Assembly: GCA_965225855.1 (NCBI GenBank)
Contig: CBDDCK010000001.1
Span: 192,001 to 256,000, forward strand
Reading direction: 5' to 3'
Length of the DNA: 64,000 nt
Source: Spirochaetia bacterium
Lineage (GTDB): Bacteria > Spirochaetota > Spirochaetia > SP-2023
Made by a program: the position numbers and the translations under genes. Positions 15,579 through 51,093 of the stretch are shown piece by piece. The notes beneath the pieces are model-generated. The model searched no databases, was not told where the DNA came from, and saw only the letters and a list, made by a program, of their open reading frames with translations. Each line of letters starts with the position of its first letter. Position 1 is the first letter of the stretch.

Positions 15579-15721
15579 GTCTTGCTGCAATATAGCTTTC
15601 CGCCTTGGTATAAAGTCTTGTTCCGCATTGGTGCAATATAGCTTTCCCACTTCGATCAAGGCCTTGATCCGCATTGGAGTAAGGTATTGATCGAAGGCGG
15701 AAAGTTATATCATAGCAAGGC
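15579..15721. repeat. Fold-back (REP/MITE-like) palindromic unit within leader 1
   Basis: 28-bp imperfect terminal inverted repeats (15579-15606 / 15694-15721, 23/28 match) and inner palindrome gatcaaggccttgatc. Confidence 0.8.
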
Positions 15722-15739
15722 ACTAAAAACCATAAAAAT

Positions 15740-15995: not shown

Positions 15996-16099
15996 CCCTC
16001 AAGACTTTTGATTGGCATGGATTTTGAACCACCTTACAACACTAACACACAAAAAAAGTGCCCAAACATAAAAAAACTTACAAAAAGCTTGTATAGGCC

Positions 16100-16126
16100 T
16101 TGACGCAACACCCCCCCTAGCAAAAT
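16100..16126 (+). promoter_or_regulatory. Putative sigma70 promoter with C7 tract in spacer (identical at 36122-36148 and 48919-48945)
   Basis: TTGACG -35, 15-bp spacer containing CCCCCCC, weak -10 CAAAAT; GGAGGT RBS before ATG. Confidence 0.45.
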
Positions 16127-16189
16127 GGGGATTTACAGACTAGCCCGTATGGGTTGGTTAATCTTTATCCATTGTTGGAGGTATTGCTT

Positions 16190-18382
16190 ATGTATAAGCT
16201 CAAACTACTTTTATTGCCAGTAGCCTGGCTACTGGCCTTTATGGCCTTGGCCTGCGCCCCACCCGATGACGATGCGCCGTCTTCTGGGCCGTCTGGGCCG
16301 ACTATCAAGAACGCCATGTACGATGTTGGCAAGGCTATCTTAACCGTACAAGGCACTAACTTAAGTCCTACAGAAGCCCAAATCCAAACTATCACGGTAG
16401 CTGGCTTAGCCTTAAGTTCCTATATTGCAGATGCCAAACCCACTGGGCCAAATAGTAACAATCTGGCAAAAGGTAAGTACCGTATGAAAAGCGATGGCAC
16501 AGCGCTTTGGCTGAAACTTAAAGATGAACATAAAGCTGCTCTTGAGGCCAAGGTGGGTAGCAATGGTCTAAAAAAAGGCTTGCTTAGCGTTAGCTCTGGT
16601 GCTTGGGCGGGTTTAGATACAGCCAAAGACTTAACCGTTAGTAATGTACCCGATAAGCAGTCTAAAGTATCCGATGACAATCAGCCATCTAAGCAAACTG
16701 AAGAAGAGTCGCGTAAGCAAACTGAAGACGAACAAGCTGAAGAAGTCGAAGAGCAGTCGCCTAAGCAAGCTAAAGCCGAACAAGTCGAACAAGCTGAAGA
16801 TAAGCAGTCGCCTGAACTACCCGAAGCCGAACAAACCGAAGAAGTCGAAGATAAGCAGTCTAAGACCGAAACCGAAGAGCAGTCGCCTAAAGCTGCAATT
16901 ACCCGTGCAAGCTACAATGTTATTTCAGGCTTCTTAGAGATTACAGGTACTAATTTACCAGCAGCAGTTGCAGACTGGGACTTTAGCAAATTGACGCTTG
17001 TATCCGGTGATGGTACTAATAGATACACATTACCCCGGCACTCAACAGGTCAAGAAAACAGAGCCATAGGTTTTGCAAATAGAAACACAGCCACAGGTTC
17101 TGAAGCAAGTGCAACAAGCTTATATATTGAGTTAAGGGGTAGTGTAAAAGCCAAAGCCGAGAAGATACTGGTTAACGATGGTGTTCGTGATGCTAATGGT
17201 GCATACAACCTGGAAGCAGCAGCAGGCTTTGCAGGTGGTAGCGCTGAAGACACAACCAACCCTATTACCGTTATTGGGTATACAGCCAGCATCACCAAAG
17301 TAGACTACGATGCTAATACAGGCGAGTTATTGATTCAGGGTATCAAGTTACCGAGAGCAGTTGCACGATGGGACTTTAGCAAATTGACGCTTGTATCCGG
17401 TGATGGTAAGAAGAGATACCCATTACCCCAGCACGCAACCGCAGGTGAAAACACAGCCACAGGTTCTAGTGCAGGTACAACCTACTTATATATTACTTTA
17501 AGCGGTAGTATAAAAGCGGAAGCCGAGAAGATACTGGTTAACGATGGTGTTCGTGATGCTAATGGTGCATACAACCTGGAAGCAGCAGCAGGCTTTGCAG
17601 GTGGTAGCGCTGAAGACACAACCAACCCGATTACCGTTAGTGGGTATGTAAGCCTGCTCGACTCCGTATTATACAGAACAACTGTAAGCCAGTTAATTAT
17701 TAAAGGTAGCAGGTTACCGACAGCAGTTGCAGACTGGGACTTTAGCAAATTGACGCTTGTATCCGGTGATGGTAAGAAGAAATACACATTACCACGGCAC
17801 TCAACTGTAGGCGCAAACAGAGCCACAGGTTCTAGTGCAAGTGCAACAGGCATATCTATTACTTTAAGCGGTAGTGTAAAAGCCAAAGTCGAGGCTATAC
17901 TGGTTAAGGTTGGTGATAGTGATAATAATGGTGCATACAACCTGGAAGCAGCAGCAGGATTTGCAGGTGGTAGCGCTGAAGACACAAGCAATAACCCGAT
18001 TACCGTTAGTGGGTATGTAAGCCAGATCACCAACTTAGTCTACAATTCACGTACAGGCGTGTTAACGATTAATGGTATTAATTTACCGTCAACAGTTGCA
18101 GAGTGGGACTTTAGCAAATTGACGCTTGTATCCGGTGATGGTAAGAAGAAATACACATTACCCCAGCACGCAATAGGTGAAAACACAGCCACAGGTTCTA
18201 GGGCATTTAACAACGTCTTATATATTACTTTAAGCGGTAATGTAAAAGTGGAAGCCGATGCTATACTTGATACGGTTGGTCTTCAAGATGCTGATGGTTA
18301 TTACAACCTTGAAGCAGCAGCAGGATTTGTAATGGGTAATCCAGCAGACACAAGCAATAACATTATTTATGTTAGTAATTAG
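16190..18382 (+). CDS. Modular surface lipoprotein, paralog 1 (signal-A-long acidic linker-B-B-B-B)
   Basis: GGAGGT RBS then MYKLKLLLLPVAWLLAFMALA-C lipobox; four WDFSKLTLVSGDG...YNLEAAAGF repeats. Confidence 0.9.
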   Translation: MYKLKLLLLPVAWLLAFMALACAPPDDDAPSSGPSGPTIKNAMYDVGKAILTVQGTNLSPTEAQIQTITVAGLALSSYIADAKPTGPNSNNLAKGKYRMKSDGTALWLKLKDEHKAALEAKVGSNGLKKGLLSVSSGAWAGLDTAKDLTVSNVPDKQSKVSDDNQPSKQTEEESRKQTEDEQAEEVEEQSPKQAKAEQVEQAEDKQSPELPEAEQTEEVEDKQSKTETEEQSPKAAITRASYNVISGFLEITGTNLPAAVADWDFSKLTLVSGDGTNRYTLPRHSTGQENRAIGFANRNTATGSEASATSLYIELRGSVKAKAEKILVNDGVRDANGAYNLEAAAGFAGGSAEDTTNPITVIGYTASITKVDYDANTGELLIQGIKLPRAVARWDFSKLTLVSGDGKKRYPLPQHATAGENTATGSSAGTTYLYITLSGSIKAEAEKILVNDGVRDANGAYNLEAAAGFAGGSAEDTTNPITVSGYVSLLDSVLYRTTVSQLIIKGSRLPTAVADWDFSKLTLVSGDGKKKYTLPRHSTVGANRATGSSASATGISITLSGSVKAKVEAILVKVGDSDNNGAYNLEAAAGFAGGSAEDTSNNPITVSGYVSQITNLVYNSRTGVLTINGINLPSTVAEWDFSKLTLVSGDGKKKYTLPQHAIGENTATGSRAFNNVLYITLSGNVKVEADAILDTVGLQDADGYYNLEAAAGFVMGNPADTSNNIIYVSN

Positions 18383-36211: not shown

Positions 36212-38617
36212 ATGTATAAGCTCAAACTACTTTTATTGCCAGTAGCCTGGCTACTGGCCTTTATGGCCTTGGCCTGCGCCCCACCCGATGACGATGATCG
36301 ATCTTCTGGGCCGTCTAAGCCGACTATCAATAACGCCATCTACGACTTTGCTACGGCGCTGTTAACCGTACAAGGTACTGACTTAAGTCCTACAGAAGCC
36401 CAAATCCAAACCATCGTAGTAGATGGCGTAGCCTTAAGTTCCTATACTGCAGATGCCAAACCCACTGGGCCAGATAATAGCAATCTGGCAAAAGGTAAGT
36501 ACCGTATGAAAAGCGATGGCACAGCGATTTGGCTTAGACTTACCGATCCACATAAAGCTGCTCTTCAGACCAAGGTGGGTATGAATACCAATGGTCTAAA
36601 AAAAGGGTTGCTTACTAGCTCTGGTGCTTGGGCGGGTTTAAATACAGCCAAAGACTTAACCGTTAGGAATGTACCCGATAAGCAGTCTAAAGTATCCGAT
36701 GACAATCAGCCATCTAAGCAAACTGAAGACGAACAAGCTGAACAAGTCGAACAAGCTGAAGAGCAGTCGCCTGAAGCTGCAATTACCCGTGCAAGCTACC
36801 ATGTTGGCACGGCGCTGCTAACTGTACAAGGTTCTAACTTAAGTCCTACAACTGCGACCCAAGCCCAAATCCAAACCATCAAAGTATATGACCTAGTCTT
36901 AAATTCTTATACTGCAGATGGCACAGCCACTGGGGCAGATAGTAGCAGTCTTGCAAAAGGTAAGTACCGTATTAAAAGCGATGGCACAGCGCTTTGGCTT
37001 TACCTTACCGATCAACATAAAACTACTCTGAATGGCAAGGACGGTATGGATAGCAATGGTCTAAAAGATGGGTTGCTTACTAGCACTGGTAGTTGGGCGG
37101 GTTTAGATACAGCCAAAGCCTTAACCGTTAGTGGAAACCCCGCAATTACCGGTGCAAGCTACCATGTTGGCACGGCGCTGTTAACCTTGCAAGGTACTCT
37201 CTTAGCTAGTGCTACCCAAGCCCAAATCCAAACCATCACGGTAGATGGGGTAGCTTTAGATTCCTATACTGCCACAGCCACTGGGCCAGATAGTCGCGGT
37301 CTTGCAAAAGGTAAGTACCGTATTAAAAGCGATGGCACAGCGCTTTGGCTTTACCTTACCGATCGACATAAAACTACTCTGAATGGCAAGACAGGTATGG
37401 ATAGCAATGGTCTAAAAGATGGGTTGCTTAGCGTTGGCACTGGTACTTGGGCGGGTTTAAATACAGCCAAAGCCTTGGCCGTTAGTGGAAACCCCGAAGC
37501 TGCAATTACCGGTGCAAGCTACGATGTTGGCACAGCTCTGCTAACCGTACGAGGTTCTAACTTAAATGCTACCAGTGCGACCCAAGCGCAAATCCAAACC
37601 ATCGTGGTAGATGGCTTAGCCTTAAGTTCCTATATTGCAGATGAGGATGCCACTGGGCCAGATAGTCGCGGTCTTGCAAAAGGTAAGTACCGCCTGCATA
37701 GCGCTGGCACAGCGCTTTGGCTTTACCTTACCGATCAACATAAAGCTACTCTGAATGGCAAGACAGGTATGGATAGCAATGGTCTAAAAGATGGGTTGCT
37801 TAGCGTTGGCACTGGTACTTGGGCGGGTTTAAATACAGCCAAAGCCTTGGCCGTTAGTGGAAACCCCGCACCCGCAATTACCAGTGCAACCTACAATTTT
37901 ACTACAGGCGTGTTAGTGATTACAGGTGTCAATTTACCGTCAAGAGTGGATCGCTGGGACTTTAGCAAATTGAGGTTTGTCGCAGGTAATGGTCGTACTA
38001 AGAGTCAACCATTATTAGAGCACAACCCAACAGCTTATGATATAAACAGAGCCACAGGTTCTGCAGCAAGTGCAACAAGCTTAACGATTACTTTAAAGGG
38101 TACTGAACAAAGGAAAGCCGATAATATACTGGTTAAGAATGGTAAAAGAGATGCTGATGGTGCATACAACCTGGAAGCAGCAGCAGGATTTGCAGGTGGT
38201 AGGGCTGAAGACACAAGCAATAACCCGATTACCGTTAGTGGGTATGTAGTCAAAATCAACACCGTACGCTACTATGCTGATGATGGCGAGTTAAATATTT
38301 CTGGTATTAATTTACCGACAACAGTTGCAGAGTGGGACTTTAGCAAATTGACGCTTGTATCCGGTGATGGTAAGAAGAAATACACATTACCCCGGCACGC
38401 AATAGGTGAAAACACAGCCACAGGTTCTGGTGCAACTAGAAACATCTTACAGATTACTTTAAGCGGTAGTGTAAAAGCGGAAGCCAATAAGATACTGGTT
38501 AAGAATGGTGTTCGTGATGCTAATGGTGCATACAACCTTGAAGCAGCAGCAGGATTTGTAATTGGTGGTTCAGCAGACCCAACCACTGCTATTAAAGTTT
38601 TTGGTGTTGGTAAGTAA
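36212..38617 (+). CDS. Modular surface lipoprotein, paralog 2 (signal-A-short linker-A-A-A-B-B)
   Basis: Same signal peptide and lipobox as paralog 1; four LAKGKYR...GTA(L/I)WL modules and two WDFSKL modules. Confidence 0.9.
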   Translation: MYKLKLLLLPVAWLLAFMALACAPPDDDDRSSGPSKPTINNAIYDFATALLTVQGTDLSPTEAQIQTIVVDGVALSSYTADAKPTGPDNSNLAKGKYRMKSDGTAIWLRLTDPHKAALQTKVGMNTNGLKKGLLTSSGAWAGLNTAKDLTVRNVPDKQSKVSDDNQPSKQTEDEQAEQVEQAEEQSPEAAITRASYHVGTALLTVQGSNLSPTTATQAQIQTIKVYDLVLNSYTADGTATGADSSSLAKGKYRIKSDGTALWLYLTDQHKTTLNGKDGMDSNGLKDGLLTSTGSWAGLDTAKALTVSGNPAITGASYHVGTALLTLQGTLLASATQAQIQTITVDGVALDSYTATATGPDSRGLAKGKYRIKSDGTALWLYLTDRHKTTLNGKTGMDSNGLKDGLLSVGTGTWAGLNTAKALAVSGNPEAAITGASYDVGTALLTVRGSNLNATSATQAQIQTIVVDGLALSSYIADEDATGPDSRGLAKGKYRLHSAGTALWLYLTDQHKATLNGKTGMDSNGLKDGLLSVGTGTWAGLNTAKALAVSGNPAPAITSATYNFTTGVLVITGVNLPSRVDRWDFSKLRFVAGNGRTKSQPLLEHNPTAYDINRATGSAASATSLTITLKGTEQRKADNILVKNGKRDADGAYNLEAAAGFAGGRAEDTSNNPITVSGYVVKINTVRYYADDGELNISGINLPTTVAEWDFSKLTLVSGDGKKKYTLPRHAIGENTATGSGATRNILQITLSGSVKAEANKILVKNGVRDANGAYNLEAAAGFVIGGSADPTTAIKVFGVGK

Positions 38618-38704
38618 GTTTTGGTTGTTGCGGTAAGCAAGGCTTGGTTGGCTTTTTTGTTGGGCTATTAGGCTGTATCTTGTTGTTGCAACGCTTGGTT
38701 GGCC

Positions 38705-38744
38705 AAAAGCAGCCTTGGTAAGTTTTTTTATCAAGGCTGCTTTT
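38705..38744 (+). terminator. Intrinsic terminator after paralog 2
   Basis: aaaagcagccttggtaa...ttatcaaggctgctttt stem with U-tract; homologous at 51094-51129 and inverted near 46687-46717. Confidence 0.7.
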
Positions 38745-38754
38745 GCCAATTACA

Positions 38755-38851
38755 GCCTTGGTATAAAGTATTGTTCCGCATTGGTGCAATACATCTTTCC
38801 GCCTTGGATCAAGGCCTTGATCCAAGGCGGAAAGCTATATCATAGCAAGGC
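38755..38851. repeat. Downstream direct-repeat copy of the leader fold-back unit, containing a perfect 40-bp palindrome (38795-38834)
   Basis: ctttccgccttggatcaagg|ccttgatccaaggcggaaag; flanks match the leader unit (ttggtataaagtattgttccgcattggtgcaata ... tatcatagcaaggc). Confidence 0.85.
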
Positions 38852-38909
38852 TAGAAAAATTTATTAAGGCTGCTTTTGCCAATTATAGCCTTGGTAAGTA
38901 GAAAAAAAT

Positions 38910-38954
38910 CGAGTTATCATGTCCGATGGCACAAAGTTATCACGTCCTGCATCA
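38910..38954 (-). repeat. Right terminal inverted repeat, copy after paralog 2
   Basis: cgagttatcatgtccgatggcacaaagttatcacgtcctgcatca; homology with the 51164-51208 copy stops exactly at the terminal CA. Confidence 0.8.
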
Positions 38955-39226
38955 ACTTTTAACAGTCAGTGACTATCTATAGTCATAGATAGCTATAACC
39001 TTGATTAGATGTAGCTACTAACTTTAGTAATAGGTTCTGAATAGAGCTAGTCACAATTTATCATAATTTAATATGGCATACAGCCATACATAAACAACCA
39101 ACTTGCTTGCCGCCTAAGCGTATGCTATAAGAGCTAAAAATAGGCCTCAAAGCCAAAAAGCTTTTCAGCGAAACTGGGCCGTATGGATAGATGAATAATT
39201 AAATGCAATATAGGGGAACGAACATC

Positions 39227-39952
39227 CTACCAAGAAATAGCTTGCATGCCATGCTGTTGCAAGTAGGCATTACAGCGCGAAAACGGGCGCGAACCGAAAA
39301 AGCCCCTATGCGCAGAAAGGGGTGAAGGGTGGGTGCTAGCCAGCAGTAAATGCTGGCTTTTATCAATGCAAGCTGCCTTTTTTTGGGCATAAGAACCCCA
39401 CAGTAAAAACACCAAATGCCTCCCTCGTTGGGCCTGCATGTGTGCCAAGCGTAAGATCACTTGGTCGGTAAACTCTTCCCAGCCCTTGCCCGCATGAGAG
39501 GCGGCTTTGCCGTCTTCCACCGTTAGCACACTGTTGAGCAATAAAACCCCCTGCTGGGCCCACCGCCATAATTGGCCATCGGCTACGCCACTGGCCATAT
39601 TCTGCGCTGTTGGGCTGTCTGGTAAATCGCTAGCCAGCTCCTTGTATATATTGATTAGTGAAGGAGGAAGGGCCTTGCCTTGTGGGACCGCAAAGCATAA
39701 GCCACAGGCTTGGCCCTCGCCATGGTAAGGGTCTTGTCCTAGTATAATTACTTTGGTATCTTGGGGTGCAAAAGCCCCAAAAGCAGCCAATATATCGCAA
39801 CCTTTGGGGTAGATGATTTTGCCTTGTTGCTTTTGGCTGCGTAGGTATGCACTTAACTGCTGCATAGGTGCTTGGCTAAATAAATCACCCAGTAGCTCCA
39901 ACCAAGCGGGGCTTAGCTGAACGGGCCTCGGTTTATTCATGGTATGGCTCAT
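39227..39952 (-). CDS. ung: Uracil-DNA glycosylase family 1
   Basis: ILGQDPYHG, PPSL.NIYKEL, GVLLLNSVLTV, HPSPLS. Confidence 0.96.
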   Translation of the reverse strand: MSHTMNKPRPVQLSPAWLELLGDLFSQAPMQQLSAYLRSQKQQGKIIYPKGCDILAAFGAFAPQDTKVIILGQDPYHGEGQACGLCFAVPQGKALPPSLINIYKELASDLPDSPTAQNMASGVADGQLWRWAQQGVLLLNSVLTVEDGKAASHAGKGWEEFTDQVILRLAHMQAQRGRHLVFLLWGSYAQKKAACIDKSQHLLLASTHPSPLSAHRGFFGSRPFSRCNAYLQQHGMQAISW

Positions 39953-39958
39953 TGATAT

Positions 39959-41215
39959 TTAATTTTCCAATAGGGTAATTTCTACTCGGCGGTTGCGTTT
40001 ACGCCCTTGTTCATTGCTGTTGGAGGCAATGGGTTCGGTGCCCCCTTTGCCACGTATCACAATTTGTTCACGGTTGCGTATCTGGTTATCAATAAAGTAT
40101 TGCCCCACCGTTGCGGCCCTGTTTTCTGAAAGGGTCTGCTGTTGTTCTGCGCTGCCCCAATTGGCCGTATGGCCAGTAACTAAAATATCCCGATTGGGGT
40201 ATTTTTGCAGAATCTTACTAATCTGCTGTAGCTTGCGTTCTTCACCCGCTAACATGCGTTCACTATTGGGGTAAAAATTAATGGAATCAATCGAAATGGA
40301 TATGCCTTTATCATTTTGTTGCAGCTCTGCAGCAATGCCCGCATCGCGCAAACCCTGCTCTAATTCCTGTTGTATATCCCTGCGTTTCATAGGTTCGGCC
40401 TCGATAATTTTCCCACGGGAACGCCCGCTAAAGGCTATCTCATCACCGCTTTGCAATAGGTAGGATATTTGGAAATCTTCCTTTTGGAATACAGGCAAGC
40501 CTCGCTCACTATCCCAATAGAGATCGATATTGTGTTCTGCTCGAACCGCCCGTGGTATATCCTGCTGCCGCCTAGAATACGGCGAATTAGTAAATTGCGA
40601 TAGCTGCTGACTGACATCTTTATTGATAAGATAAAACAAGGTGATATGCTTGAGCTTGCGACCCTGCAAAAATTTTTGACCTCTGTAGATATAGTCTACA
40701 ATAAAGGCAAAATGCAATTCGGTTGGTATGCCAAAGACCAAGCTTAAATCCTGCACTTCACTGGCCGGTGCGCGCCAACCTTCACCTACGCGCAGCTCCC
40801 GATTGGGGAAGCTAGGCACATTGCGTAAACTAGGCAAAGTCATCCTTGGCCCTATATTTAAATACAGCCCTTGGGGGGACATTTCAAATTGGGAGCTGCG
40901 TTCTTCGGCGCGGCTAAAAAATGCCCCATTGCTTGCTTGTTCGGAAACTTGATAGTGGACATCCAAAAGGGCATTGGGACCCCTCATAGCCTTCACCGAC
41001 ACCGCAATGCGGTTGAGTATTGTGGTGCGGTAAATTACCTTGCGATTGCGCAAAACTTGTTCATCTACTTGGGCCACAATATGGTATTTTTGGCCCGAAT
41101 AGTGGTTGTATGCCAAACGGACAGAGCCTTGTTCTTGGGCCCATAAAGCTGAAGTTAAAGCCGTAAAGTAAAATATATAGTATCTAGCGGTAGTCAATAT
41201 TTTTTGGAAAGTCAT
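39959..41215 (-). CDS. OmpA-family peptidoglycan-binding periplasmic/outer-membrane protein
   Basis: Signal peptide; C-terminal VTGHTA..LSE.RA..V...NRRVEI OmpA-C domain. Confidence 0.85.
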   Translation of the reverse strand: MTFQKILTTARYYIFYFTALTSALWAQEQGSVRLAYNHYSGQKYHIVAQVDEQVLRNRKVIYRTTILNRIAVSVKAMRGPNALLDVHYQVSEQASNGAFFSRAEERSSQFEMSPQGLYLNIGPRMTLPSLRNVPSFPNRELRVGEGWRAPASEVQDLSLVFGIPTELHFAFIVDYIYRGQKFLQGRKLKHITLFYLINKDVSQQLSQFTNSPYSRRQQDIPRAVRAEHNIDLYWDSERGLPVFQKEDFQISYLLQSGDEIAFSGRSRGKIIEAEPMKRRDIQQELEQGLRDAGIAAELQQNDKGISISIDSINFYPNSERMLAGEERKLQQISKILQKYPNRDILVTGHTANWGSAEQQQTLSENRAATVGQYFIDNQIRNREQIVIRGKGGTEPIASNSNEQGRKRNRRVEITLLEN

Positions 41216-41313
41216 AAGCGGTGCCAGTATACTGTAGAGAAACATCGATACAACAGCAATCTGCCACGAAAAAGGAAGACGATCATAGCCCCTTTAGGTA
41301 TACTGGCCGACTA

Positions 41314-43437
41314 ATGAACAACCAGAAACAATCTAGTAATAACTATAAGCAAAAAACCGATAGTGGCCAAGCACAAAATATGCCATCGCTAGCACCCTTA
41401 CCCTATGCCCATATTGTATTTGTCAATGCTATTCAGCTAGGCCCTTATGCCCTGAAACCTTTGCAGTTTGGCCAGCATGCTTGGGAGCTTACTTTAGAAA
41501 AATTGGGCCAGTTACCCCATAAGCAGCTTCCCCACGCCATGGAAGGTAGCATAGATAGACTGCCTTGCATTTGTTTATTGCCCCCCCAGTCGGCTCATTT
41601 GCCCAATGATATAGCTACGGCCTTAGCACCAGAAATACTGCGCCAGCGGGGCTTGCATCCTTTGCATTTAAAGGACTATTCCGAAGCGGCTCTAATTACG
41701 GCAATACGCCAAGGTATAGAACTGTTTTACCCCCAAGCTTTCCGCCCCGACCCTACGATAAAGGCCTTAGAAAAATATTTAGACTACTTGGATAAGCAAG
41801 AGGCACCAGAACAAGAACCTACAAAAACAAAAGTAGATGATGAAGCCTTCCGTGAAGATGTTGCACTGCCTTTAGCTATGCGCTTCGGCCCCGAGCAACT
41901 GGACAGTAAACAACTATTTTTGGCAGAGAATCTAACTTCCCGCCAAATTCATTGCTACTGGATTGAAGGCGATGCTCCATTACTTTCGCTAGAGCTAACC
42001 CAGCAACTATATGATAAACATCATAACTTTGCTGCCGAGTTTAGTTTTACAGATATCTACCCCCAGGGTTTGGTACCCATATTATTCCAAGCCGCTATAT
42101 TGAGTCGCCTATGGTTTCTCAAGCGGGAACAGTATCCTTCGGGCATATCTTCAAGTATAAAGCCCCAGATTCCCACGCTCAATCCAGTGCCCACTCTCAA
42201 TATTGGGGAAATCGCCGAACGCGATTTAAATTTGTTTGCTGCCGAACCGTTGCTATGCTCTAAAGATTATCGTCTGCTGCGTTTAGATTTGCGAGCTAGC
42301 AACAAACGCCAGTACCAAATATTACAAAGCCTGTACCACAATCTGGCTTCAGATTTGCAACATTCAACAAGAACAAAACACCAAATACCAGTCCAAAAAA
42401 TTCTGCATTGGGTGGAACATTCAGCTGAAAGTCTGCGCAGTTTGCCGCGTTATTTTCCCATTCAAATTTCTGCTACTTGCGCACAGCAATGTAGTTATTG
42501 CCCATATCCTCAAATCGCCGAGCCCCAGTTGTTTCCGCCGCAATCTTTGCGTGCTTTGCGCAAAGATGACAATCCTGCCAATTTTATGTCCCGCCCATTA
42601 TGGCGCAAGCTACTAGCTGCCATCACTGAATTTGCCGGCGATGGGGTGCTCAATCTTTCTCCTTTAGGAGAGCCTTTGTTACACTCGGAATTTGTCGGTT
42701 TTATAGAAGATTTGCAGCCATATCCCTCGTTGGAATTAGTTATTGAAACCAGCGGTAGCCACTGGGAAACGCAGCCTATCCAGCGGTTGCAAGAATATAT
42801 TCAAGCGCACATGCCAGGGCGTATTACTTGGATTATTAGCCTTGATGCCTTAGACCCCAAGTTGTACCAGCAGTTGCGCTCTACAGAAGAAAGTATTTCC
42901 CCATTGACGGGCATGACGCCTAGCCAGCAAAAGGCACATAGTTTAGTGGAATTATTATTAAATTATCATCAATCGGTTTACGTGCAAGCAGTCCGCATGC
43001 GCGACAATGAAGCGGATTTAGAGGCCTTTTATCGCTATTGGGCCGAAGGTTATAAACCTCAAAATGGGCTGGCAGCCCAAGCCCTGAAGGAGCAACCCGT
43101 GCTAAAAACTTTTCCACAAGTGATTGTACAAAAATATAACTCCTACGCTGGCCTTTTGCCCGAACGCCAATTGCTTTCGCTAGAGCCTGTCGAACGCTTC
43201 CCTTGCCGCCGCTTAGCCCGCGAAATGGTATTTGGAATCAATGGAGAGGCCTACCTTTGTGTTCAAGATTTACAGCAAAAACTTTCCAAGGAATTAGAGC
43301 TAAGCCTAGGGGAATTCCCACAAAAAAGTTTAGAAGAACTATGGAGCGTTGGGCACAACTTGTACCAACAGCACATTAAAGCCAATTATCCTAGTATCTG
43401 CCAAAATTGTGATGAATATTATGTTTATAACTTTTAA
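41314..43437 (+). CDS. Radical SAM/SPASM domain protein (spirochete spiro-SPASM type)
   Basis: CAQQCSYC (CxxxCxxC), GEPLLH, C-terminal R.PC..L...C...CQNCDEYY; N-terminal degenerate cytidylyltransferase-like region (GDAPLL). Confidence 0.8.
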   Translation: MNNQKQSSNNYKQKTDSGQAQNMPSLAPLPYAHIVFVNAIQLGPYALKPLQFGQHAWELTLEKLGQLPHKQLPHAMEGSIDRLPCICLLPPQSAHLPNDIATALAPEILRQRGLHPLHLKDYSEAALITAIRQGIELFYPQAFRPDPTIKALEKYLDYLDKQEAPEQEPTKTKVDDEAFREDVALPLAMRFGPEQLDSKQLFLAENLTSRQIHCYWIEGDAPLLSLELTQQLYDKHHNFAAEFSFTDIYPQGLVPILFQAAILSRLWFLKREQYPSGISSSIKPQIPTLNPVPTLNIGEIAERDLNLFAAEPLLCSKDYRLLRLDLRASNKRQYQILQSLYHNLASDLQHSTRTKHQIPVQKILHWVEHSAESLRSLPRYFPIQISATCAQQCSYCPYPQIAEPQLFPPQSLRALRKDDNPANFMSRPLWRKLLAAITEFAGDGVLNLSPLGEPLLHSEFVGFIEDLQPYPSLELVIETSGSHWETQPIQRLQEYIQAHMPGRITWIISLDALDPKLYQQLRSTEESISPLTGMTPSQQKAHSLVELLLNYHQSVYVQAVRMRDNEADLEAFYRYWAEGYKPQNGLAAQALKEQPVLKTFPQVIVQKYNSYAGLLPERQLLSLEPVERFPCRRLAREMVFGINGEAYLCVQDLQQKLSKELELSLGEFPQKSLEELWSVGHNLYQQHIKANYPSICQNCDEYYVYNF

Positions 43438-43464
43438 TTGCTGCAGCTAATTAGAAATATTGTA

Positions 43465-45585
43465 ATGAAACAAGATGAAATGACCAAAGCTAAAAACTCG
43501 AAGCAAAAATCAAGGGATTTTCCAAAAGAGGCCAAGCAACAAAAAGCTCAAAAAACAATAGGAGAGAAAAAAGCCAAAATAGCCGACCCAAATTCAAGTT
43601 TTACTGCCGATTTACCGCCCCAATTGCAGCGCGATTTAGCCGAGCTTCCCGATAAGCCGGGAGTCTATTTAATGCATAATCAAGCTTCACAAATTCTCTA
43701 TATTGGCAAAGCAAAAAATTTACGCAACCGCGTGCGCTCTTATTTTGTTGGCAATAAAGACCTCAAAACAGAATTACTACGGCGCAAAGTAAACCATGTA
43801 GAAATTTTGCTCTGTGCCAACGACTATGAAGCTTTACTTTTAGAAAATAACTTAATTAAAAAACATAAGCCCCGCTATAATATCAACCTCAAAGATGACA
43901 AAACTTACCCGTTGATTTGCATCAGTGGGGACGATTTTCCACGTATTTTTAAAACACGACAAATCAGGCGGGACGGTTCACAATATTTTGGCCCCTATCC
44001 TGTGGGGGTGCAATTGGATAGCCTATTACAGCTTTTGAATGAATTATTCCCACTGCGGCGCTGCAAAAGCCCTTTAGTACTGCGTGAAAAGCCTTGTCTA
44101 TATTACCATCTCAAACAATGCCTAGGCCCGTGCATTGGGGCCGTCAGCAAAGAAGAATATTCTGGCTATGTACACAAGGCAAAAAATCTATTGCAAGGTT
44201 CTAGCAAAAAGCTGCAGCAGGAATTGGAACGCAATATGCGCAAAGCCGCCGAGGAGTTGCATTTTGAAGAAGCGGCACGATTGCGCAATCAGTTACACAA
44301 TTTGCAAAATTTACGGCAAAGCCAGAGCATGGAATTACAAGAACGGCCAGAAATTTCCCGTGATTATCTGGCGATGTTACAATTGCAAGATTATTATTTT
44401 TTCACTGTATTACTTTTACGTCAAGGGAAATTACTGGGCTATCACCATTTTTCTAGTCGCTATTTGCTAGAAGATCGTACTTCGCAAGATTTAAATATAG
44501 ATATAGCGCAAATAAAACGCGCTTCTTTGTTAGGGCAAGCAGGGCAACGCAAACAAGCATTGAATGCTGCGTTGGTCGAATTTTTGTGCCAGTATTATTT
44601 GGAAAACGGCCATGAACTACCGCACGAATTGTATTTGCCCGAATTAGACTTAGACTGGGAAGAGCTGGAATTATTTTTACAATTACTTGCAAAACAACGA
44701 GGTAAAGCTTTTAAGATTCAGCCTTTTAGCCGCACGCAACAAGCGGCGAATAACCGTCTCTTGCTACTTTGGGCCCATGAAAATGTAATTCGGCAGCAGC
44801 AAGTTTGGCTGCGCTACCAAGGGCGCAGCTTGATGATGGAAGAGCTGCGCAAGGCATTAGATTTGGAAGAACTGCCTGATCATATTGAAGGTTTTGACAT
44901 ATCTCACATAGGGGGGCAAGCTACGGTGGCTTCGCTAATTGTGTTTCGAGCAGGTCGGCCAGCAAAAGATGAATATCGTAGTTTTAATTTGCAAACAACC
45001 GAAGGCCATATAGACGATTTTGCTTCTATGCAGGAAGCAGTTTCACGGCGCTACACTCGTTTGCTCAATGAAATGCAACCATTACCCGATTTAATTATGA
45101 TTGATGGCGGCCAAGGGCAGGTTAATTCTGCTGCTGCTGTTTTGCGTTCACTGGGTTTGGCCATTCCGATAGTGGGTTTAGCTAAACGCCAAGAAATTTT
45201 ATTTTTCCCCAATCTAAGCTATGAAGATGGCATTAGCGATTCATATTCACAGGTTCGCGCTCCATTGGATTTGCCTTTGGGACACCCCGGGCTAAAATTG
45301 TTACAACAAGTGCGAGACGAAACTCACCGCCGCGCCCACGGTAGTAATCGCAAACGCTATCAAAAAAGAGTGTCTAGCAGTGTGCTAGAAAATGTCCCGG
45401 GAGTGGGAAAGAAACGGAGCCATAATTTGCTACAGCAATACGGCTCGTTAGAAACATTGAGCCAAGCGAGTGCCGAAGAACTAGCTAAAGCAGGACAGAT
45501 GGGGTTAGCGATAGCGGAAACTTTGGTAGAATATTTAGCCCGCCGCAACAGCAACACGGGAGGCAACACAGAAAATGCAAAATAA
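43465..45585 (+). CDS. uvrC: Excinuclease ABC subunit C
   Basis: GIY-YIG (PGVYLM...YIGKAKNLRNRV), IEGFDISH, IDGG.GQ, RDE.HR, C-terminal HhH. Confidence 0.96.
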   Translation: MKQDEMTKAKNSKQKSRDFPKEAKQQKAQKTIGEKKAKIADPNSSFTADLPPQLQRDLAELPDKPGVYLMHNQASQILYIGKAKNLRNRVRSYFVGNKDLKTELLRRKVNHVEILLCANDYEALLLENNLIKKHKPRYNINLKDDKTYPLICISGDDFPRIFKTRQIRRDGSQYFGPYPVGVQLDSLLQLLNELFPLRRCKSPLVLREKPCLYYHLKQCLGPCIGAVSKEEYSGYVHKAKNLLQGSSKKLQQELERNMRKAAEELHFEEAARLRNQLHNLQNLRQSQSMELQERPEISRDYLAMLQLQDYYFFTVLLLRQGKLLGYHHFSSRYLLEDRTSQDLNIDIAQIKRASLLGQAGQRKQALNAALVEFLCQYYLENGHELPHELYLPELDLDWEELELFLQLLAKQRGKAFKIQPFSRTQQAANNRLLLLWAHENVIRQQQVWLRYQGRSLMMEELRKALDLEELPDHIEGFDISHIGGQATVASLIVFRAGRPAKDEYRSFNLQTTEGHIDDFASMQEAVSRRYTRLLNEMQPLPDLIMIDGGQGQVNSAAAVLRSLGLAIPIVGLAKRQEILFFPNLSYEDGISDSYSQVRAPLDLPLGHPGLKLLQQVRDETHRRAHGSNRKRYQKRVSSSVLENVPGVGKKRSHNLLQQYGSLETLSQASAEELAKAGQMGLAIAETLVEYLARRNSNTGGNTENAK

Positions 45586-45603
45586 AAGGAGCGTTTATTT
45601 TTT

Positions 45604-46398
45604 ATGGAAGGAATCATTATTGTCGGTTATGGCCGCATGGGTAAGGAAATAGAACAGCAAGCTGCCCAAATGGGTATTAGCGTTTGTGCGGTGGCCGACA
45701 ACCGCAGAGAGCTTGAACAACTGGGAGTTCAATGGCAAGTTGATAGGCAGCTAAAGGCAGGGCGTATTGCCATAGAGTTTACCGGTGGCACAGCTGCTAT
45801 AGAAAATTTGGAATATTTATTAAAACATGATATTCCCATCGTTTGTGGCTCCACCCCGTGGAATGAACAAAGCCATGCAGAGATACTAAAATTACGCAGC
45901 GAACGCCAAGGCTATTTAATGTTGAGTAGTAATTATAGTATTGGGGTCAATATCTTTTGGCGTGTAGTGCGTGAAACCAGCCGCTTGATGAACCGTTTCC
46001 CTCATTACGATTTGGGCATTTACGAACAGCATCACAACAAAAAGGCCGATTCCCCTTCCGGTACGGCGGTAAGTGCTGGCAATATTGTCTTGCAAGAGGT
46101 GGAGCGCAAAATCCGCTTACTCTATGGCAAACCGCAAGATGCGCAAGGCCATGAGCGCCCTATTGATGCTGCTGAATTGCAAGTAAGCTCCCAGCGTTTG
46201 GGGCATATTTGGGGAGTGCACCAACTACTGTGCGATAGCCCAGAAGACTCTATCACTATTTCACATCAAGCGCACAATCGCACAGGGCTAGCACGCGGTA
46301 CGCTGATTGCTGCCCAGTTTTTACAGCAGCAAGTGGATAATAACAAACCGGGCTTTTTTTCTATGGGCGAATTGATGGATTATTTTTTACAATCTTAG
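45604..46398 (+). CDS. dapB: 4-hydroxy-tetrahydrodipicolinate reductase
   Basis: GYGRMG, EFT, NYSIGV, E.HHNKKADSPSGTA, H.AHNR...ARG. Confidence 0.93.
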   Translation: MEGIIIVGYGRMGKEIEQQAAQMGISVCAVADNRRELEQLGVQWQVDRQLKAGRIAIEFTGGTAAIENLEYLLKHDIPIVCGSTPWNEQSHAEILKLRSERQGYLMLSSNYSIGVNIFWRVVRETSRLMNRFPHYDLGIYEQHHNKKADSPSGTAVSAGNIVLQEVERKIRLLYGKPQDAQGHERPIDAAELQVSSQRLGHIWGVHQLLCDSPEDSITISHQAHNRTGLARGTLIAAQFLQQQVDNNKPGFFSMGELMDYFLQS

Positions 46399-46479
46399 CT
46401 CTTTTATGCAGAATTAACGAAAAAAGGCAAGCAAGGCTTGGCCAAAGTTTATCTTGTTACAAAAAATTCTTGTTAGTTA

Positions 46480-46609
46480 TTAAGAAATTCTGTTGTTGGG
46501 TATTAAGAAACTCTCTTGTTGGGCATTAAGAAACTCTCTTGTTGGGCATTAAGAAACTCTCTTGTTGGGCATTAAGAAATTCTGTTGTTGGGCATTAAGA
46601 GACTCTCTT
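46480..46609. repeat. Tandem 23-bp repeat, ~5.6 copies (ttaagaaactctcttgttgggca)
   Basis: Units start at 46480, 46503, 46526, 46549, 46572, 46595; no spacers. Confidence 0.92.
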
Positions 46610-46686
46610 AATTGTTATGCCAACGTTCTGGCAATAATTATTCAAAGCTATTACTAAAAAAAGTTTGTAGCCTTAATAAATTTTTC

Positions 46687-46717
46687 CAGCCTTGGTATTT
46701 TCTCCATACCAAGGCTG
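46687..46717 (-). terminator. Hairpin downstream of the silent cassette, homologous to the paralog terminators
   Basis: cagccttggtat-tttctcc-ataccaaggctg. Confidence 0.6.
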
Positions 46718-46756
46718 CAATAGGTCAATGCAAGCGTTGCAACAACCAAACCTTAC

Positions 46757-47014
46757 TTACCAACTTGTAACTTTAATACTAGTGGTTGGGTCTTTTGTGC
46801 TACCACCTGCAAATCCTGCTGCTGCTTCAAGGTTGCCAGCCTTAACCAGTATCTTATCGGCTTTGGCTTTTACAGTACCGCTTAAAGTAATAATTAAGTA
46901 GGTTGCACTTGCTTCAGAACCTGTGGCTTTGTTTGCACCTGCAGTTGAGTGCTGTGGTAATGTGAATCTCTTAGTACGATCACCGGATACAAGCGTCAAT
47001 TTGCTAAAGTCCCA
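46757..47014 (-). pseudogene. Silent inverted 3' cassette of the modular lipoprotein family (C-terminal part of a B module plus stop)
   Basis: Reads WDFSKLTLVSGDRTKRFTLPQHSTAGANKATGSEASATYLIITLSGTVKAKADKILVKAGNLEAAAGFAGGSTKDPTTSIKVTSW*; preceded by an in-frame TAA; no RBS or leader. Confidence 0.88.
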
Positions 47015-47033
47015 GACTTATTTCTAATAAGAG

Positions 47034-47951
47034 TTATAAAGTATTTAACTCGTCCAGGTAGGGAATAGAAGGAGCTGCCCCTACCCGCCCGACTGCCAGA
47101 GCTGCGGCACGGCTACCTGCCTTTAAAGCCTCAAAAAAATCTTCATCTTTTAGGATTGCAGCAGTATAGTAACCAGCAAATGTATCGCCCGCCGCGGTGG
47201 TATCCACTAACGGAACAGGATAAGCAAGCAGGGAATAGTCCTGTTGCCTATAGCTGCCCCAAACCCCATCTGCGCCTAAAGTTATCACCAAACGAGAATT
47301 TGGCATACGTCTTTTTAATAAATTAAAAGCAGTTTCAACCGAAGTCGCCTCCGCCAAGTCCATGGCTTCAGTTTCATTTACCAACAAAGTGTGAAGCTGG
47401 GTATAATCAATTTTTTGTAGGTCTGGACAATAGGGTGCTGCATTAAAAATCACCGGAATATGGTGCGTATGGGCACAGTCTAATAGAGCGGGTAAGCCGT
47501 TCATTTCATTTTGACATACTACAGCCGAATAACAATCAGGCGGAATTGTTGCAGATGTAAATAGCTGTCTTACAGCAGTATCCGTCCAAGAATGATTGGC
47601 ACCGCTATACAATACGATGCTGTTCTCGACTGTGCTGTTCTGGCCTTCACGCCCAACCTGAATCATTGCATGCCCTGTATGGTAACCTTCCCAACATTGG
47701 GTAAAAGTACAATCTACCCCATTATCTTCCAAAAAGGTACGCAACCACAGGCCATCACTGCCAATACGCCCGGCATGGCACACCGACATTCCGGCCCGAG
47801 ACATCGCTAGAGATTGGTTTAAACCTTTACCACCCGGATGCACGGCATAGCCTCCTGGCTCAATTGCAGCAAGCGTCTCACCAGGACGAACTATATGCTC
47901 TAACTGATACACATGATCTATATTCAAAGAACCAAAGGATAACACAGGCAT
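47034..47951 (-). CDS. rbsK: Ribokinase (PfkB family)
   Basis: GSLNIDHV, PGGKGLNQS.A, NETEA, DTTAAGDTF.G; GGAG RBS before MPVLSFGS. Confidence 0.85.
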   Translation of the reverse strand: MPVLSFGSLNIDHVYQLEHIVRPGETLAAIEPGGYAVHPGGKGLNQSLAMSRAGMSVCHAGRIGSDGLWLRTFLEDNGVDCTFTQCWEGYHTGHAMIQVGREGQNSTVENSIVLYSGANHSWTDTAVRQLFTSATIPPDCYSAVVCQNEMNGLPALLDCAHTHHIPVIFNAAPYCPDLQKIDYTQLHTLLVNETEAMDLAEATSVETAFNLLKRRMPNSRLVITLGADGVWGSYRQQDYSLLAYPVPLVDTTAAGDTFAGYYTAAILKDEDFFEALKAGSRAAALAVGRVGAAPSIPYLDELNTL

Positions 47952-48064
47952 AATACTTTCTATCTTCTCCAATTGATCTTGCCATGCAAGCCAAAACCAA
48001 ACCCAAACCAAACAACCAATCAATTCCGGTTGCTGAGCAACGGTCGCAGCCATTTTACCAACTT

Positions 48065-48269
48065 GTACGGCGGGCCACAACATCTGCGGTAGCGTTCAAA
48101 GCCAGCAATTAAAATATTACGGCCACTAGCCTCAATAATAAAAATTACGTCAGCCACAATAAGAAGTTACATTGAGAATATCTAAAGCATTTCCCAGCAA
48201 TTGCCAGATCAACACCCCCTGTAACGTCCCAACGATTTTGACCGAACCACCAGCTAAACTGGTACCAAC
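48065..48269 (-). pseudogene. 3' remnant of a sugar ABC transporter permease (RbsC-like)
   Basis: Minus-strand frame VGTSLAGGSVKIVGTLQGVLIWQLLGNALDILNVTSY matches the GGTSL.GG.G.I.GTL.GVLI...L.N.L.ILNV.SY permease motif; frameshifted afterwards; truncated at leader 3. Confidence 0.65.
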
Positions 48270-48274
48270 CAACA

Positions 48275-48296
48275 CCCCACCCCCCAAACCCACCCC
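48275..48296 (-). other. Canonical G-quadruplex motif G4-T-G3-TTT-G6-T-G4
   Basis: Plus strand cccc a cccccc aaa ccc a cccc. Confidence 0.75.
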
Positions 48297-48585
48297 ACCT
48301 AATAACTACCCCAGCCCCAAAGCAACAAACCCAAAGCAACAAACCGAAATAGCCATACAAACGCACATACAAACGCAATTGGGCAATTGGTTTGCCGATG
48401 CCAATCTACAAGTCATCGCCTGCTTTACCACAATACACCTTTCCGGCTTGGTATAAAGTATTATTCCAACTTGGTGCAATATAACTTTCCGCCTTCGATC
48501 AAGGCCTTGATCCGCATTGGAGTAAGGTATTGATCGAAGGTGGAGAGATGTATCATAGCAAGGCACTAAAAACCATAAAAATAAG

Positions 48586-48814
48586 CAAGCCATAGACTTG
48601 CTAAAACCCAACAACATCGTAAAAAGCCAAAACTGGGACGACCTCAAATAGGGCCAGTATGCCGATGCTTTGACCTTAGCCCACAGCGTCAATGCTGGCA
48701 TTTTAGACGACTTGCACAATATCTGGCTATATATTGCGGGCCTATGACCCCAACTGGGATATATTGATACCACCCAATGGTTGGCATGGTTGGCGTTGCG
48801 CCTGCTATCGCATA
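48586..48814 (+). pseudogene. Mu gpF-like head morphogenesis gene remnant, copy 3
   Basis: WDDLK*GQYADALTLAHSVNAGILDDLH, then ILRAYDPNWDILIPPNGWHGWRCAC. Confidence 0.68.
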
Positions 48815-49008
48815 GCCTTAAGCCTTTTGATTGGCATGGATTTTGAACCACCTTACAACACTAACACACAAAAAAAGTGCCCAAACATAAAAAAACTTAC
48901 AAAAAGCTTGTATAGGCCTTGACGCAACACCCCCCCTAGCAAAATGGGGATTTACAGACTAGCCCGTATGGGTTGGCCAATCTTTATCCCTTGTTGGAGG
49001 TATTGCTT

Positions 49009-51039
49009 ATGTATAAGCTCAAACTACTTTTATTGCCTGTAGCATTGCTACTGGCCTTTATGGCCTTGGCCTGCGCACCACCCGATGACGATGATCGATC
49101 TTCTGGGCCATCTTCTGGGCCGTCTATCAATAATGCCATCTACGACTTTGCTACGGCTCTGTTAACCGTACAAGGTACTGACTTAAGTCCTACAGAAGCG
49201 CAAATCCAAACTATCACGGTAGCTGGCCTAGCCTTAAGTTCCTATATTGCAGATGCCAAACCCACTGGGCCAAATAGTAACAGTCTTGCAAAAGGTAAGT
49301 ACCGTATGAAAAGCGATGGCACAGCGCTTTGGCTGAAACTTAAAGATGAACATAAAGCTGCTCTTGAGGCCAAGGTGGGTAGCAATGGTCTAAAAAAAGG
49401 GTTGCTTACTAGCTCTGGTGCTTGGGCGGGTTTAGATACAGCCAAAGACTTAACCGTTAGCAATATACCCGATAAGCAGTCGCCTAAGCAAGCTGAACAA
49501 GCTGAACAAGCTGAAGAAGAGTCGCCTAAGCAACCTAAAGACGAACAAGTCGAACAAGCTGAAGAGGAGTCGCCTAAGCAACCTAAAGCCGAAGAGCAGT
49601 CGCCTAAAGCCGCAATTACCGGTGCAAGCTACAATGTTGGCACGGCGCTGTTAACCTTGCAAGGTACTGACTTAGGTAGTGCGACCCAAGCCCAAATCCA
49701 AACCATCGTAGTAGATGGGGTAGCCTTAAGTTCCTATACTGCAGATGACGATGCCACTGGGCCAGATAGTCGCGGTCTTGCAAAAGGTAAGTACCGCCTA
49801 CATAGCGCTGGCACAGCGCTTTGGCTTTACCTTACCGATCAACATAAAACTACTCTGAATGGCAAGACAGGTATGGATAGCAATGGTCTAAAAGATGGGT
49901 TGCTTACTAGCACTGGTACTTGGGCGGGTTTAGATACAGCCAAAGGCTTGGCCGTTAGTGGAAACCCCGCAATTACCCGTGCAACTTACCATGTTGGCAC
50001 GGCTCTGTTAACTGTACAAGGTACTGACTTAGCTAGTGCGACCCAAGCGCAAATCCAAACCATCGTGGTAGATGGCTTAGCCTTAAGTTCCTATATTGCA
50101 GATGAGGATGCCACTGGGGCAGATAGTCGCGGTCTTGCAAAAGGTAAGTACCGCCTGCATAGCGCTGGCACAGCCATTTGGCTTTACCTTACCGATCGAC
50201 ATAAAACTACTCTGAATGGCAAGACAGGTATGGATACCAATGGTAGAAAAGTCGGGTTGCTTGCTAGCACTGGTGCTTGGGCAGGTTTAGATACAGCCAA
50301 AGACTTGGCCGTTATTGGAAACCCACCCGCAATTACCAGTGCAACCTACAATGTTGCTACAAGTGTGTTAGTGATTACAGGTGTCAATTTACCAAAATCA
50401 GTGTATGGCTGGGACTTTAGCAAATTGAGGTTTGTCGCAGGTGATGGCCGTAAGAGTCAACCATTATTCAAGCACAGCACAACCGGTAAAGGTATACACA
50501 GATCCATAGGTTCTGCAGCAAGTGCAACAAGCTTAACGATTACTTTAAGCGGTAGTATTCAAAAAGGGAACGCCAATAAGATATTGGTTAAGAATGGTGA
50601 TAGTGATGATGCTGGTGCATACAACCTGGAAGCAGCAGCAGGATTTGCAGGTGGTAGCGCTGAAGACCTAACCAACCCTATTACCGTTAGTGGGTATGTA
50701 ATTTCTATCACTGGAGCATACTACAGTCCTAATAATGGCAATTTATTGATTCAGGGTACTAATTTACCGAGAACAATTGCAGAGTGGGACTTTAGCAAAT
50801 TGACGCTTGTATCCGGTGATGGTAGTAAGAGATACAAATTACCCCAGCACTCAACCACAGGTGAAAACAGAGCCGAAGGTTCTAATGCAAGTGCAATAAG
50901 CGTATTGATTACTTTAAGCGGTAGTGTAAAAGCCAAAGTCGATGCTATACTGGTTAAGAATGGCAACCTGGAAGCAGCAGCAGGATTTGTACCTGGTAGC
51001 GCAGAAGACCTAACCAATAAGATTATAGTTTTTAATTGA
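49009..51039 (+). CDS. Modular surface lipoprotein, paralog 3 (signal-A-linker-A-A-B-B)
   Basis: Same lipobox; three A and two B modules; last B module lacks the D..D..GAY segment. Confidence 0.9.
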   Translation: MYKLKLLLLPVALLLAFMALACAPPDDDDRSSGPSSGPSINNAIYDFATALLTVQGTDLSPTEAQIQTITVAGLALSSYIADAKPTGPNSNSLAKGKYRMKSDGTALWLKLKDEHKAALEAKVGSNGLKKGLLTSSGAWAGLDTAKDLTVSNIPDKQSPKQAEQAEQAEEESPKQPKDEQVEQAEEESPKQPKAEEQSPKAAITGASYNVGTALLTLQGTDLGSATQAQIQTIVVDGVALSSYTADDDATGPDSRGLAKGKYRLHSAGTALWLYLTDQHKTTLNGKTGMDSNGLKDGLLTSTGTWAGLDTAKGLAVSGNPAITRATYHVGTALLTVQGTDLASATQAQIQTIVVDGLALSSYIADEDATGADSRGLAKGKYRLHSAGTAIWLYLTDRHKTTLNGKTGMDTNGRKVGLLASTGAWAGLDTAKDLAVIGNPPAITSATYNVATSVLVITGVNLPKSVYGWDFSKLRFVAGDGRKSQPLFKHSTTGKGIHRSIGSAASATSLTITLSGSIQKGNANKILVKNGDSDDAGAYNLEAAAGFAGGSAEDLTNPITVSGYVISITGAYYSPNNGNLLIQGTNLPRTIAEWDFSKLTLVSGDGSKRYKLPQHSTTGENRAEGSNASAISVLITLSGSVKAKVDAILVKNGNLEAAAGFVPGSAEDLTNKIIVFN

Positions 51040-51093
51040 TGTTGGTAAGTAAGGTTTGGTTATTGCTGTAAGCAAGGCTTGCATTGGCCAATT

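Follow-up and report, generated by a model that had tools for sequence, protein, structure and literature searches.

Here, we examined a headless 3′ gene end, on the minus strand immediately downstream of an rbsK-like gene, within a 64,000-nucleotide stretch of a spirochaete genome (hereafter, the window), and conclude that this tail was probably left by one recent deletion or illegitimate join and probably has no selected role in switching. Among the reasons for viewing it as a relic, a single headless tail stands against 106 full-length genes of the same family, which encode predicted lipoproteins, and broken copies of other kinds are common. The first-pass annotation, which had only three paralogs in view, portrayed the tail as a silent, shufflon-like C-terminal cassette. 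The geometry behind that proposal stands, including the in-frame crossovers, the presence of recA and the position of the break next to a 36-bp core sequence; the shufflon-like role itself is weakly supported, given the 106 full-length genes and the one headless tail in the genome.

The headless tail and its junction with rbsK

The window, whose gene content (flagellar genes, a V-type ATPase) is suggestive of a spirochaete, contains three family paralogs in addition to the tail (Table 1). As previously described, the tail is an uninterrupted gene end of 85 codons, which runs from W-D-F-S-K to V-T-S-W and a stop. A start codon at the head, a leader and a signal peptide are all absent from it; an in-frame stop sits two codons above W-D-F-S-K, and within the tail, a frame of 80 codons, likewise lacking a signal peptide, could be read from a TTG at 46999. 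Because the core begins at residue 32 of the 115 residues of the family's Ig-like module, past two strands, the tail is an incomplete domain, predicted to lack the first two strands of the fold. Together with positions 50785-51030 of paralog 3, it forms a 246-base inverted repeat that is 85% complementary.

Table 1. Features of the window discussed in the text
Feature	Position	Strand	Remarks
Paralog 1 (ORF as listed from TTG)	16154..18382	+	four modules; exact cores at 16976, 17369, 17735 and 18104
Paralog 2, full-length predicted lipoprotein, 801 aa	36212..38617	+	exact core 38333-38368
dapB	45604..46398	+	convergent with the trailer
Family-type 3′ trailer	46420..46756	-	hairpin, five 23-bp repeats, terminator-like site
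Headless 3′ gene end, 85 codons + stop	46757..47014	-	distal 70% of one Ig-like module
36-bp core (W-D-F-S-K-L-T-L-V-S-G-D)	46979..47014	-	101 exact places in the genome
At most 4 bases upstream of the core, still family-like	47015..47018	-	break at about 47018/47019
Unique spacer, rbsK stop to break	47019..47033	-	match to family sequence no better than shuffles
rbsK-like PfkB kinase	47034..48083	-	given as the longest ORF; translation probably starts about 40 codons further in
Paralog 3 promoter-like site	48919..48945	+	TTGACG and CAAAAT, separated by 15 bases that include seven C
Paralog 3, full-length predicted lipoprotein, 676 aa	49009..51039	+	exact core 50785-50820

The core, 19 bases downstream of the rbsK stop, does lie at the head of the tail, where the cassette had been thought to begin, but it is not the exact boundary, as family-like sequence continues for about 4 bases, to 47018. 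The possibility that the spacer beyond this point is a decayed module start was rejected, its 10 of 13 matches being equalled or beaten by 28 of 30 shuffles. On the other side, the trailer reported earlier is indeed present and extends to about 46420, past its noted start, with five 23-bp repeats at 46457-46617 and a terminator-like site at 46440-46428. The hairpin that had been taken for the terminator (46687-46717, 12-bp stem) lacks the T tail and was not called as one. The rbsK transcript would run into the tail.

The headless tail and its junction with rbsK are real and are common to a strain 1.1% apart. Contigs of three public runs from two studies cross the junction and reach 33 to 63 letters into the tail. 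Those of runs X1 and X2, which come from one sample, possibly the source, cover 46986-48359 with 0 differences. A contig of run X4, from another study and the one informative foreign contig, covers 46956-47358, where it has 3 other letters and, as its 1 gap, one extra base; the divergence of 1.1% of the X4 strain was measured over eight contigs. Beyond the core, the X4 contig extends for another 23 bases; in this segment, paralog 3 departs from the tail at 4 positions and paralog 2 at 5, and because X4 shows 3 other letters in all, it has the pairing seen in the reference. Given that the X4 contig runs through words with 60-104 copies, at which the X1 and X2 contigs end, a private change, possibly the extra base, likely lies inside its core. 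The flipped state was unseen in these contigs, which are built from 31-letter words, break at the core and are mostly unable to show a flip, and no joint between 47014 and either 50785 or 38333 was among the 15 of 36 joints listed; for letter differences and gaps, the listing covered 40 of 200 and 12 of 29, respectively. Trailer joints 46438-51092, 38629-46726 and 38667-46752, with sides of 37-39 letters, were set aside as trailers of other paralogs.

The tail is no more decayed than intact gene ends. Its 1 private site compares with an average of 1.4-1.7 for the 106 terminal modules in a family-only test with a power of 0.63-0.72 from which one divergent module (C5:206574) was left out; this test replaced a genome-wide 13-mer private-mutation test with a power of 0.28. 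Since the split from the X4 strain, 1.4-4.2 mutations are expected in the tail, and the chance is 0.19-0.73 of seeing at most one and 0.85-0.95 of seeing no stop. Thus, a young relic would be without a stop 85-95% of the time, so that the open frame is no sign of selection.

Three congeners (G001-G003, ~60-70% protein identity), in which these queries did not detect the family, have none of the window's neighbours around rbsK, and none below dapB, fliD or ung. With neither the family nor the gene order in place, they show no full-length ancestor at the position of the tail. In G001, a XerC-like gene (L021) lies directly below dapB; in the source genome, it is ~103 kb away.

A dispersed family of predicted lipoproteins

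The genome encompasses 115 family-like 5′ ends, 106 of which open frames of at least 400 codons; the 106 full-length paralogs add up to 218,145 bases, or 8.0% of the genome. They are dispersed over both strands, with a median spacing of 15 kb on the largest contig, and each has its own leader. The proteins start with a signal peptide ending in cysteine, as is typical of lipoproteins.

Four loci appeared to lack a 5′ end, of which only the one at 46757-47014 is a true headless tail. The candidate at the start of contig C2 is a contig edge that joins a gene cut at the start of C4 via a 16-base overlap, the candidate at C4:210671-211942 has its own, unrelated signal peptide, and the fourth is the end of a long divergent family member. 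At the C4 locus, which immediately follows another gene, three family modules and a trailer are fused to a lipoprotein-like signal peptide of unrelated sequence; apparently, this is a headless part that was re-headed. The other broken copies include four 5′ stubs (C5:583765, 959564, 244563 and 1856459; roughly 50-134 codons long), three of which lie 550-860 bases ahead of a full paralog and one of which is fused to a trailer hairpin, as well as a frameshift at C5:1394480 and two degenerate copies.

The module is predicted to adopt a beta-sandwich (pLDDT 95), and the model resembles the Ig-like domain of the S-layer protein SbsC (PDB 4uj6, 2ra1; Z 8.8, rmsd 2.6, 95 of 115 residues), a likeness of fold at 10% identity, which shows no function. 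The module fits no Pfam or NCBIfam family; Foldseek returned only weak Ig-fold matches (TM ~0.4), and the Atlas matches were unnamed clusters and one SWM-repeat lead. A CrtC Pfam match on paralog 2 was dropped, having no passing stretch. The module profile matches a further 558 proteins outside this genome, among which giant repeat proteins carrying cadherin and Ig domains are numerous. Short homologs from other assemblies (P0229, P0204, P0149, P0237 and P0238) were left out, those inspected resembling frameshifted fragments. In giant adhesin-like proteins of unrelated bacteria, such as P0094 (GLQ32120.1) and P0097 (MBU1099354.1), the module is repeated 10-30 times, while these queries did not detect it in the three congeners; the module may have originated by transfer. 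Family queries found no match in 30 related genomes or in genome_contigs, an alignment search found none in 5 genomes, and the core pattern was unmatched in metagenome_contigs.

Paralog 1 and its leader (15481-17995) have a 98.8% copy over 2,520 bases at C5:2027564-2030079, close to the end of that contig, with three modules against four. An imperfect, possibly MITE-like palindrome of ~100 bases recurs in the leaders (15625-15729, 35648-35752 and 48468-48572) and in the trailer of paralog 2 (38755-38859).

Nonsynonymous differences among modules exceed synonymous ones (pN 0.237 vs pS 0.162; pN > pS in 94.5% of 600 random pairs), so that, judging from sequence comparison, new amino-acid variants look favoured in the family. 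Across 254 modules, there is almost one codon per amino acid per column, and highly variable residues alternate with invariant ones along the strands. Upstream of family genes, we identified 108 promoter-like sites with C5-C9 tracts, typically TTGAC(G/T) and CA(A/C)AAT with a C6-C7 tract in a spacer of 14-15 bases. The spacer is 15 bases long in 84 of the sites, 14 in 20 and 17 in 2, with lengths of 13 and 16 also present; a control scan gave no peak at 17 bases. Exceptional tracts are a C8 at C5:1508622 and a C9 with a 17-base spacer at C5:803221, and the entire genome has only 3 runs of C or G of at least 8. A slipped-strand expression switch at the poly-C tract is possible.

Signs of rearrangement at paralog loci

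Strand skew at fourfold sites is hardly correlated across paralog loci (r 0.07, CI -0.15 to 0.29, n=95), compared with r 0.45 (CI 0.32-0.56, n=260) across ordinary gaps of at least 300 bases, in an analysis that rests on crude gene calls. Continuity of the skew thus looks lost at paralog loci, the effect expected of past inversions. Paralog loci with convergent flanks depart from this pattern and keep a correlation of 0.54 (n=25), and in a first pass, strand-switch junctions differed little (0.29 vs 0.34). Raw GC skew by block was set aside because it is confounded by gene strand. As for the contigs, the end of C1 overlaps the start of C5 by 743 bases, and the starts of C4 and C2 join within a paralog. 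The end of C4 (6.9 kb, 99.3%) and the start of C3 match the interior of C5 at around 1.29 Mb, possibly a sign of alternative arrangements.

Exchange between the tail and the paralogs

As proposed in the first-pass annotation, the core of the tail is inverted relative to those of paralogs 2 and 3, with which it is identical over 36 bp (38333 and 50785, plus strand). The proposed flips of ~3.8 and ~8.6 kb came to 3,770 and 8,610 bases when simulated, with resulting open frames of 677 and 792 codons; in silico, both crossovers are in frame and leave the housekeeping genes uncut. The flip with paralog 3 would alter 28 of the 85 positions of its last module.

The tail is a poorer crossover substrate than most neighbouring pairs. 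Its longest perfect matches to paralogs 1-3 measure 36, 36 and 37 bases, whereas 56 of 64 other inverted pairs less than 30 kb apart (a set that includes two duplicate rows) share longer ones, with a median of 58. In likeness to the tail, paralog 3 comes 10th and paralog 2 113th among 255 modules; in shared rare codons, they come 21st and 152nd. Even the most similar module matches the tail at only 220-230 of 258 bases, and the tail is a patchwork of exact 20-45-base matches to loci across the genome. Together with its trailer, it tiles into exact matches of 18-71 bases to loci on all five contigs; none of the maximal ones maps to paralog 2 or 3. The two features that had been read as special ties, a short-loop deletion shared with paralog 3 and a DPTT.IKV ending shared with paralog 2, are both present but are polymorphisms of the family. 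The deletion occurs in 9 of 256 modules, all terminal, so that sharing it with paralog 3 by chance has a probability of ~8%; D-P-T-T is present in 25 of 107 terminal modules, and D-P-T-T-x-I-K-V is found in 4. Hence, any tie between the tail and paralogs 2 and 3 is weak.

These observations bear on the possibility that the tail is a selected silent donor, which we consider unlikely. It would be kept as a reserve of C-terminal sequence for paralogs 2 and 3, drawn on by conversion through RecA or, now and then, by inversion, and would need no dedicated enzyme. Such a role would be compatible with the open frame and single private site, with a break that adjoins the core and a junction common to another strain, and, at the level of the genome, with recA, with pN above pS and with the loss of skew continuity at paralog loci. 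However, about 255 other modules offer equivalent donor sequence, so that one more adds little; moreover, the perfect match of the tail is the shortest among its neighbours, its maximal matches bypass paralogs 2 and 3, and the genome encodes mutS and mutL.

The core as a crossover site

The core was originally called invariant, which does not hold genome-wide: of the 256 copies within nine mismatches, 101 are exact and 71 differ by one base (172 within one mismatch), and these lie on both strands of the genome. It is, nevertheless, the most frequent exact 36-mer of family coding DNA, with 102 occurrences against 71 for the next. Its synonymous diversity is 0.078, compared to 0.089 elsewhere in the module; the values are low throughout, and the core enjoys no extra protection at silent positions. 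A break within 5 bases of the core start, as observed here at about 4 bases, has a chance of ~0.6% if break positions are assumed to be uniform.

Linkage between variable codons in 254 modules is 0.24 at 1-3 codons, 0.14 at 4-8 and ~0.09 beyond, and this decay within 4-8 codons is seen all along the module. Among the 186 near-exact modules, linkage across the core drops to 0.013 (vs 0.078) at 15-20 codons, is 0.062 (vs 0.078) at 21-28 codons and is equal at 29-40; when all 254 modules are taken, there is no dip across the core at 15-28 codons. Crossovers are therefore not concentrated at the core, where the dip is only partial, and the pattern is what one would expect if homologous recombination slightly favoured the longest perfect block, rather than of an exclusive crossover site.

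A broader version of the switching hypothesis makes the core the preferred crossover of a shufflon distributed over the genome. Any two paralogs in opposite orientation could then invert, which would exchange C-terminal modules and rearrange the chromosome; the tail would be kept as a silent end that alternates with paralog 3 or 2, while slippage in the poly-C promoters would pick the active one of about 106 genes. We find this combination improbable.

Programmed, site-specific inversion at the core by a trans-acting XerC/XerD-like pair, which would swap the C-terminus of paralog 3 or 2, is very unlikely. The layout is like that of Ureaplasma UU172 and Mycoplasma pulmonis vsa in the accessible portion of PMC3047005, the flips are in frame, the core is the commonest exact 36-mer, and two Xer-like genes are available. 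These tyrosine recombinases, best matched to XerD and XerC, reside among housekeeping neighbours, the nearest ~104 kb from the tail on the same contig, and both score under the curated XerC/XerD cut-offs. The first-pass annotation was right that the window has no invertase: none of its 45 proteins belongs to a recombinase family, and resolvases (PF00239), large serine recombinases (PF07508) and IS110-type enzymes (PF02371) were not found in the genome, which is 94% complete. The lack of a nearby recombinase is not decisive, because recombinases and invertases can sit elsewhere and act in trans, as described in the available text of PMC5903667, and Xer-like enzymes drive inversions in mycoplasmas, according to the accessible parts of PMC3047005 and PMC5634654. 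Against programmed inversion, exact core pairs 1.5-30 kb apart comprise 44 direct and 37 inverted ones, and the direct pairs would excise genes such as uvrC and dapB. Furthermore, there is no abrupt loss of linkage and no extra synonymous protection at the core, its dyad amounts to only 3 bases, none of the four 5′ stubs of the family ends there, no other recombinase family was found in the genome, and one silent end faces 106 full genes.

A likely origin by deletion

The scenario that we favour is a loss: a deletion or illegitimate join would have removed the leader and the 5′ part of a paralog and fused the remaining tail to the end of rbsK. The tail would then be read only as untranslated 3′ RNA of rbsK, to which it would lend a terminator. 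The core being the longest near-perfect block, crossovers or breaks could occur there with a slight preference, and this would account for the break adjoining it. The family as a whole would vary by RecA-type exchange of short patches (10-45 bases) among all copies, and the tail, like any copy, could serve as a source of patches or, on rare occasions, undergo a flip with one of paralogs 2 and 3. Several observations run counter to a simple relic, namely, the break beside the core, decay no greater than that of intact ends, the presence of the junction in a strain 1.1% apart, the linkage dip at 15-20 codons, the sharing with paralog 3 of a deletion allele that appears in only 8 other modules, and the lack of a full-length ancestor at this position in the three congeners. 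Invertases, moreover, can act in trans (PMC5903667).

Alternatively, the tail could have been inserted, the 3′ end of a paralog having arrived by homology at an existing trailer and been joined illegitimately on the rbsK side; its role would be the same as after a deletion. No leader remnant is present between rbsK and the break, and the locus at C4:210671 demonstrates that 3′ parts of the family do fuse to foreign DNA; but no single parent is apparent (best identity 220-230 of 258 bases), and deletion needs only one event. We rate insertion as highly improbable. That the tail is an assembly artefact at a repeat is scarcely credible, and although the assembly consists of 5 contigs with a break inside one paralog, the contigs of three runs and two studies that cross the junction largely refute it.

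Comparison with known variation systems

In the shufflon of the IncI1 plasmid R64, the recombinase gene rci, the sfx repeats and pilV provide for C-terminal exchange at a repeat within the gene. The tail locus is similar in that an in-frame C-terminal exchange can be drawn, and differs from the R64 shufflon in having no adjacent recombinase, no cluster of alternative ends and no locus-specific repeat.

Closer parallels are vsa of M. pulmonis and mba/UU172 of Ureaplasma parvum, in which, in the accessible portions of PMC3047005 and PMC4534519, the same inverted repeat precedes a headless 3′ end and lies in a lipoprotein gene, inversion yields a new C-terminus, and Xer-type recombinases are found in the genome, as they are here. 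The tail likewise follows a repeat that is inverted to, and in frame with, the repeat in a gene. UU172 switching has been measured at 1-2%, with the repeat confined to the locus and one or few expression sites facing silent ends (PMC3047005 and PMC4534519, same portions). In the present genome, by contrast, the repeat occupies 101 sites, there are 106 full-length genes and one silent end, no dedicated local invertase is present, and no switch was seen. Because the repeat is not locus-specific, the ratio of silent to expressed copies is reversed and crossovers are not focused, we do not assign the tail to the vsa/UU172 group.

With respect to gene number, the family is more like vlhA of Mycoplasma gallisepticum, which, in the available text of PMC4534519, comprises dozens of full-length lipoprotein paralogs with their own promoters and a simple repeat. 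Here, too, many full-length lipoprotein genes each have a promoter-like site with a simple repeat. The vlhA genes, however, are in tandem and carry a trinucleotide repeat, whereas the present paralogs are dispersed at about every 15-25 kb and have a C6-C7 tract in the promoter spacer.

The short-patch mosaic, with conserved blocks between variable ones, recalls vlsE of Borrelia, tprK of Treponema and, as covered in PMC4534519, msp2 of Anaplasma, and amino-acid change looks favoured in the family as well. In those systems, one expression site is fed by silent donors, whereas here nearly all copies are full-length and there is neither a single expression locus nor a silent archive. Indeed, with 106 full-length genes and a single headless tail, the layout is the reverse of one expression site with many silent copies. 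A literature search, to which most subscription papers were inaccessible, found no description of the family, including in host-associated spirochetes, and no primary description of Piv or of the sap system of C. fetus.

Implications

By itself, a lone relic such as this tail is of minor importance. It nonetheless offers a clean test site: with unique DNA on one side of its core, flips can be counted directly in long reads. The more notable object is the family, accounting for ~8% of a small genome and comprising 106 dispersed, full-length, predicted surface lipoproteins with an unnamed Ig-like module. If confirmed, it would constitute a system of surface variation whose genes all act as donors and acceptors alike, in contrast to Borrelia and Treponema, where the variation systems have one expression site.
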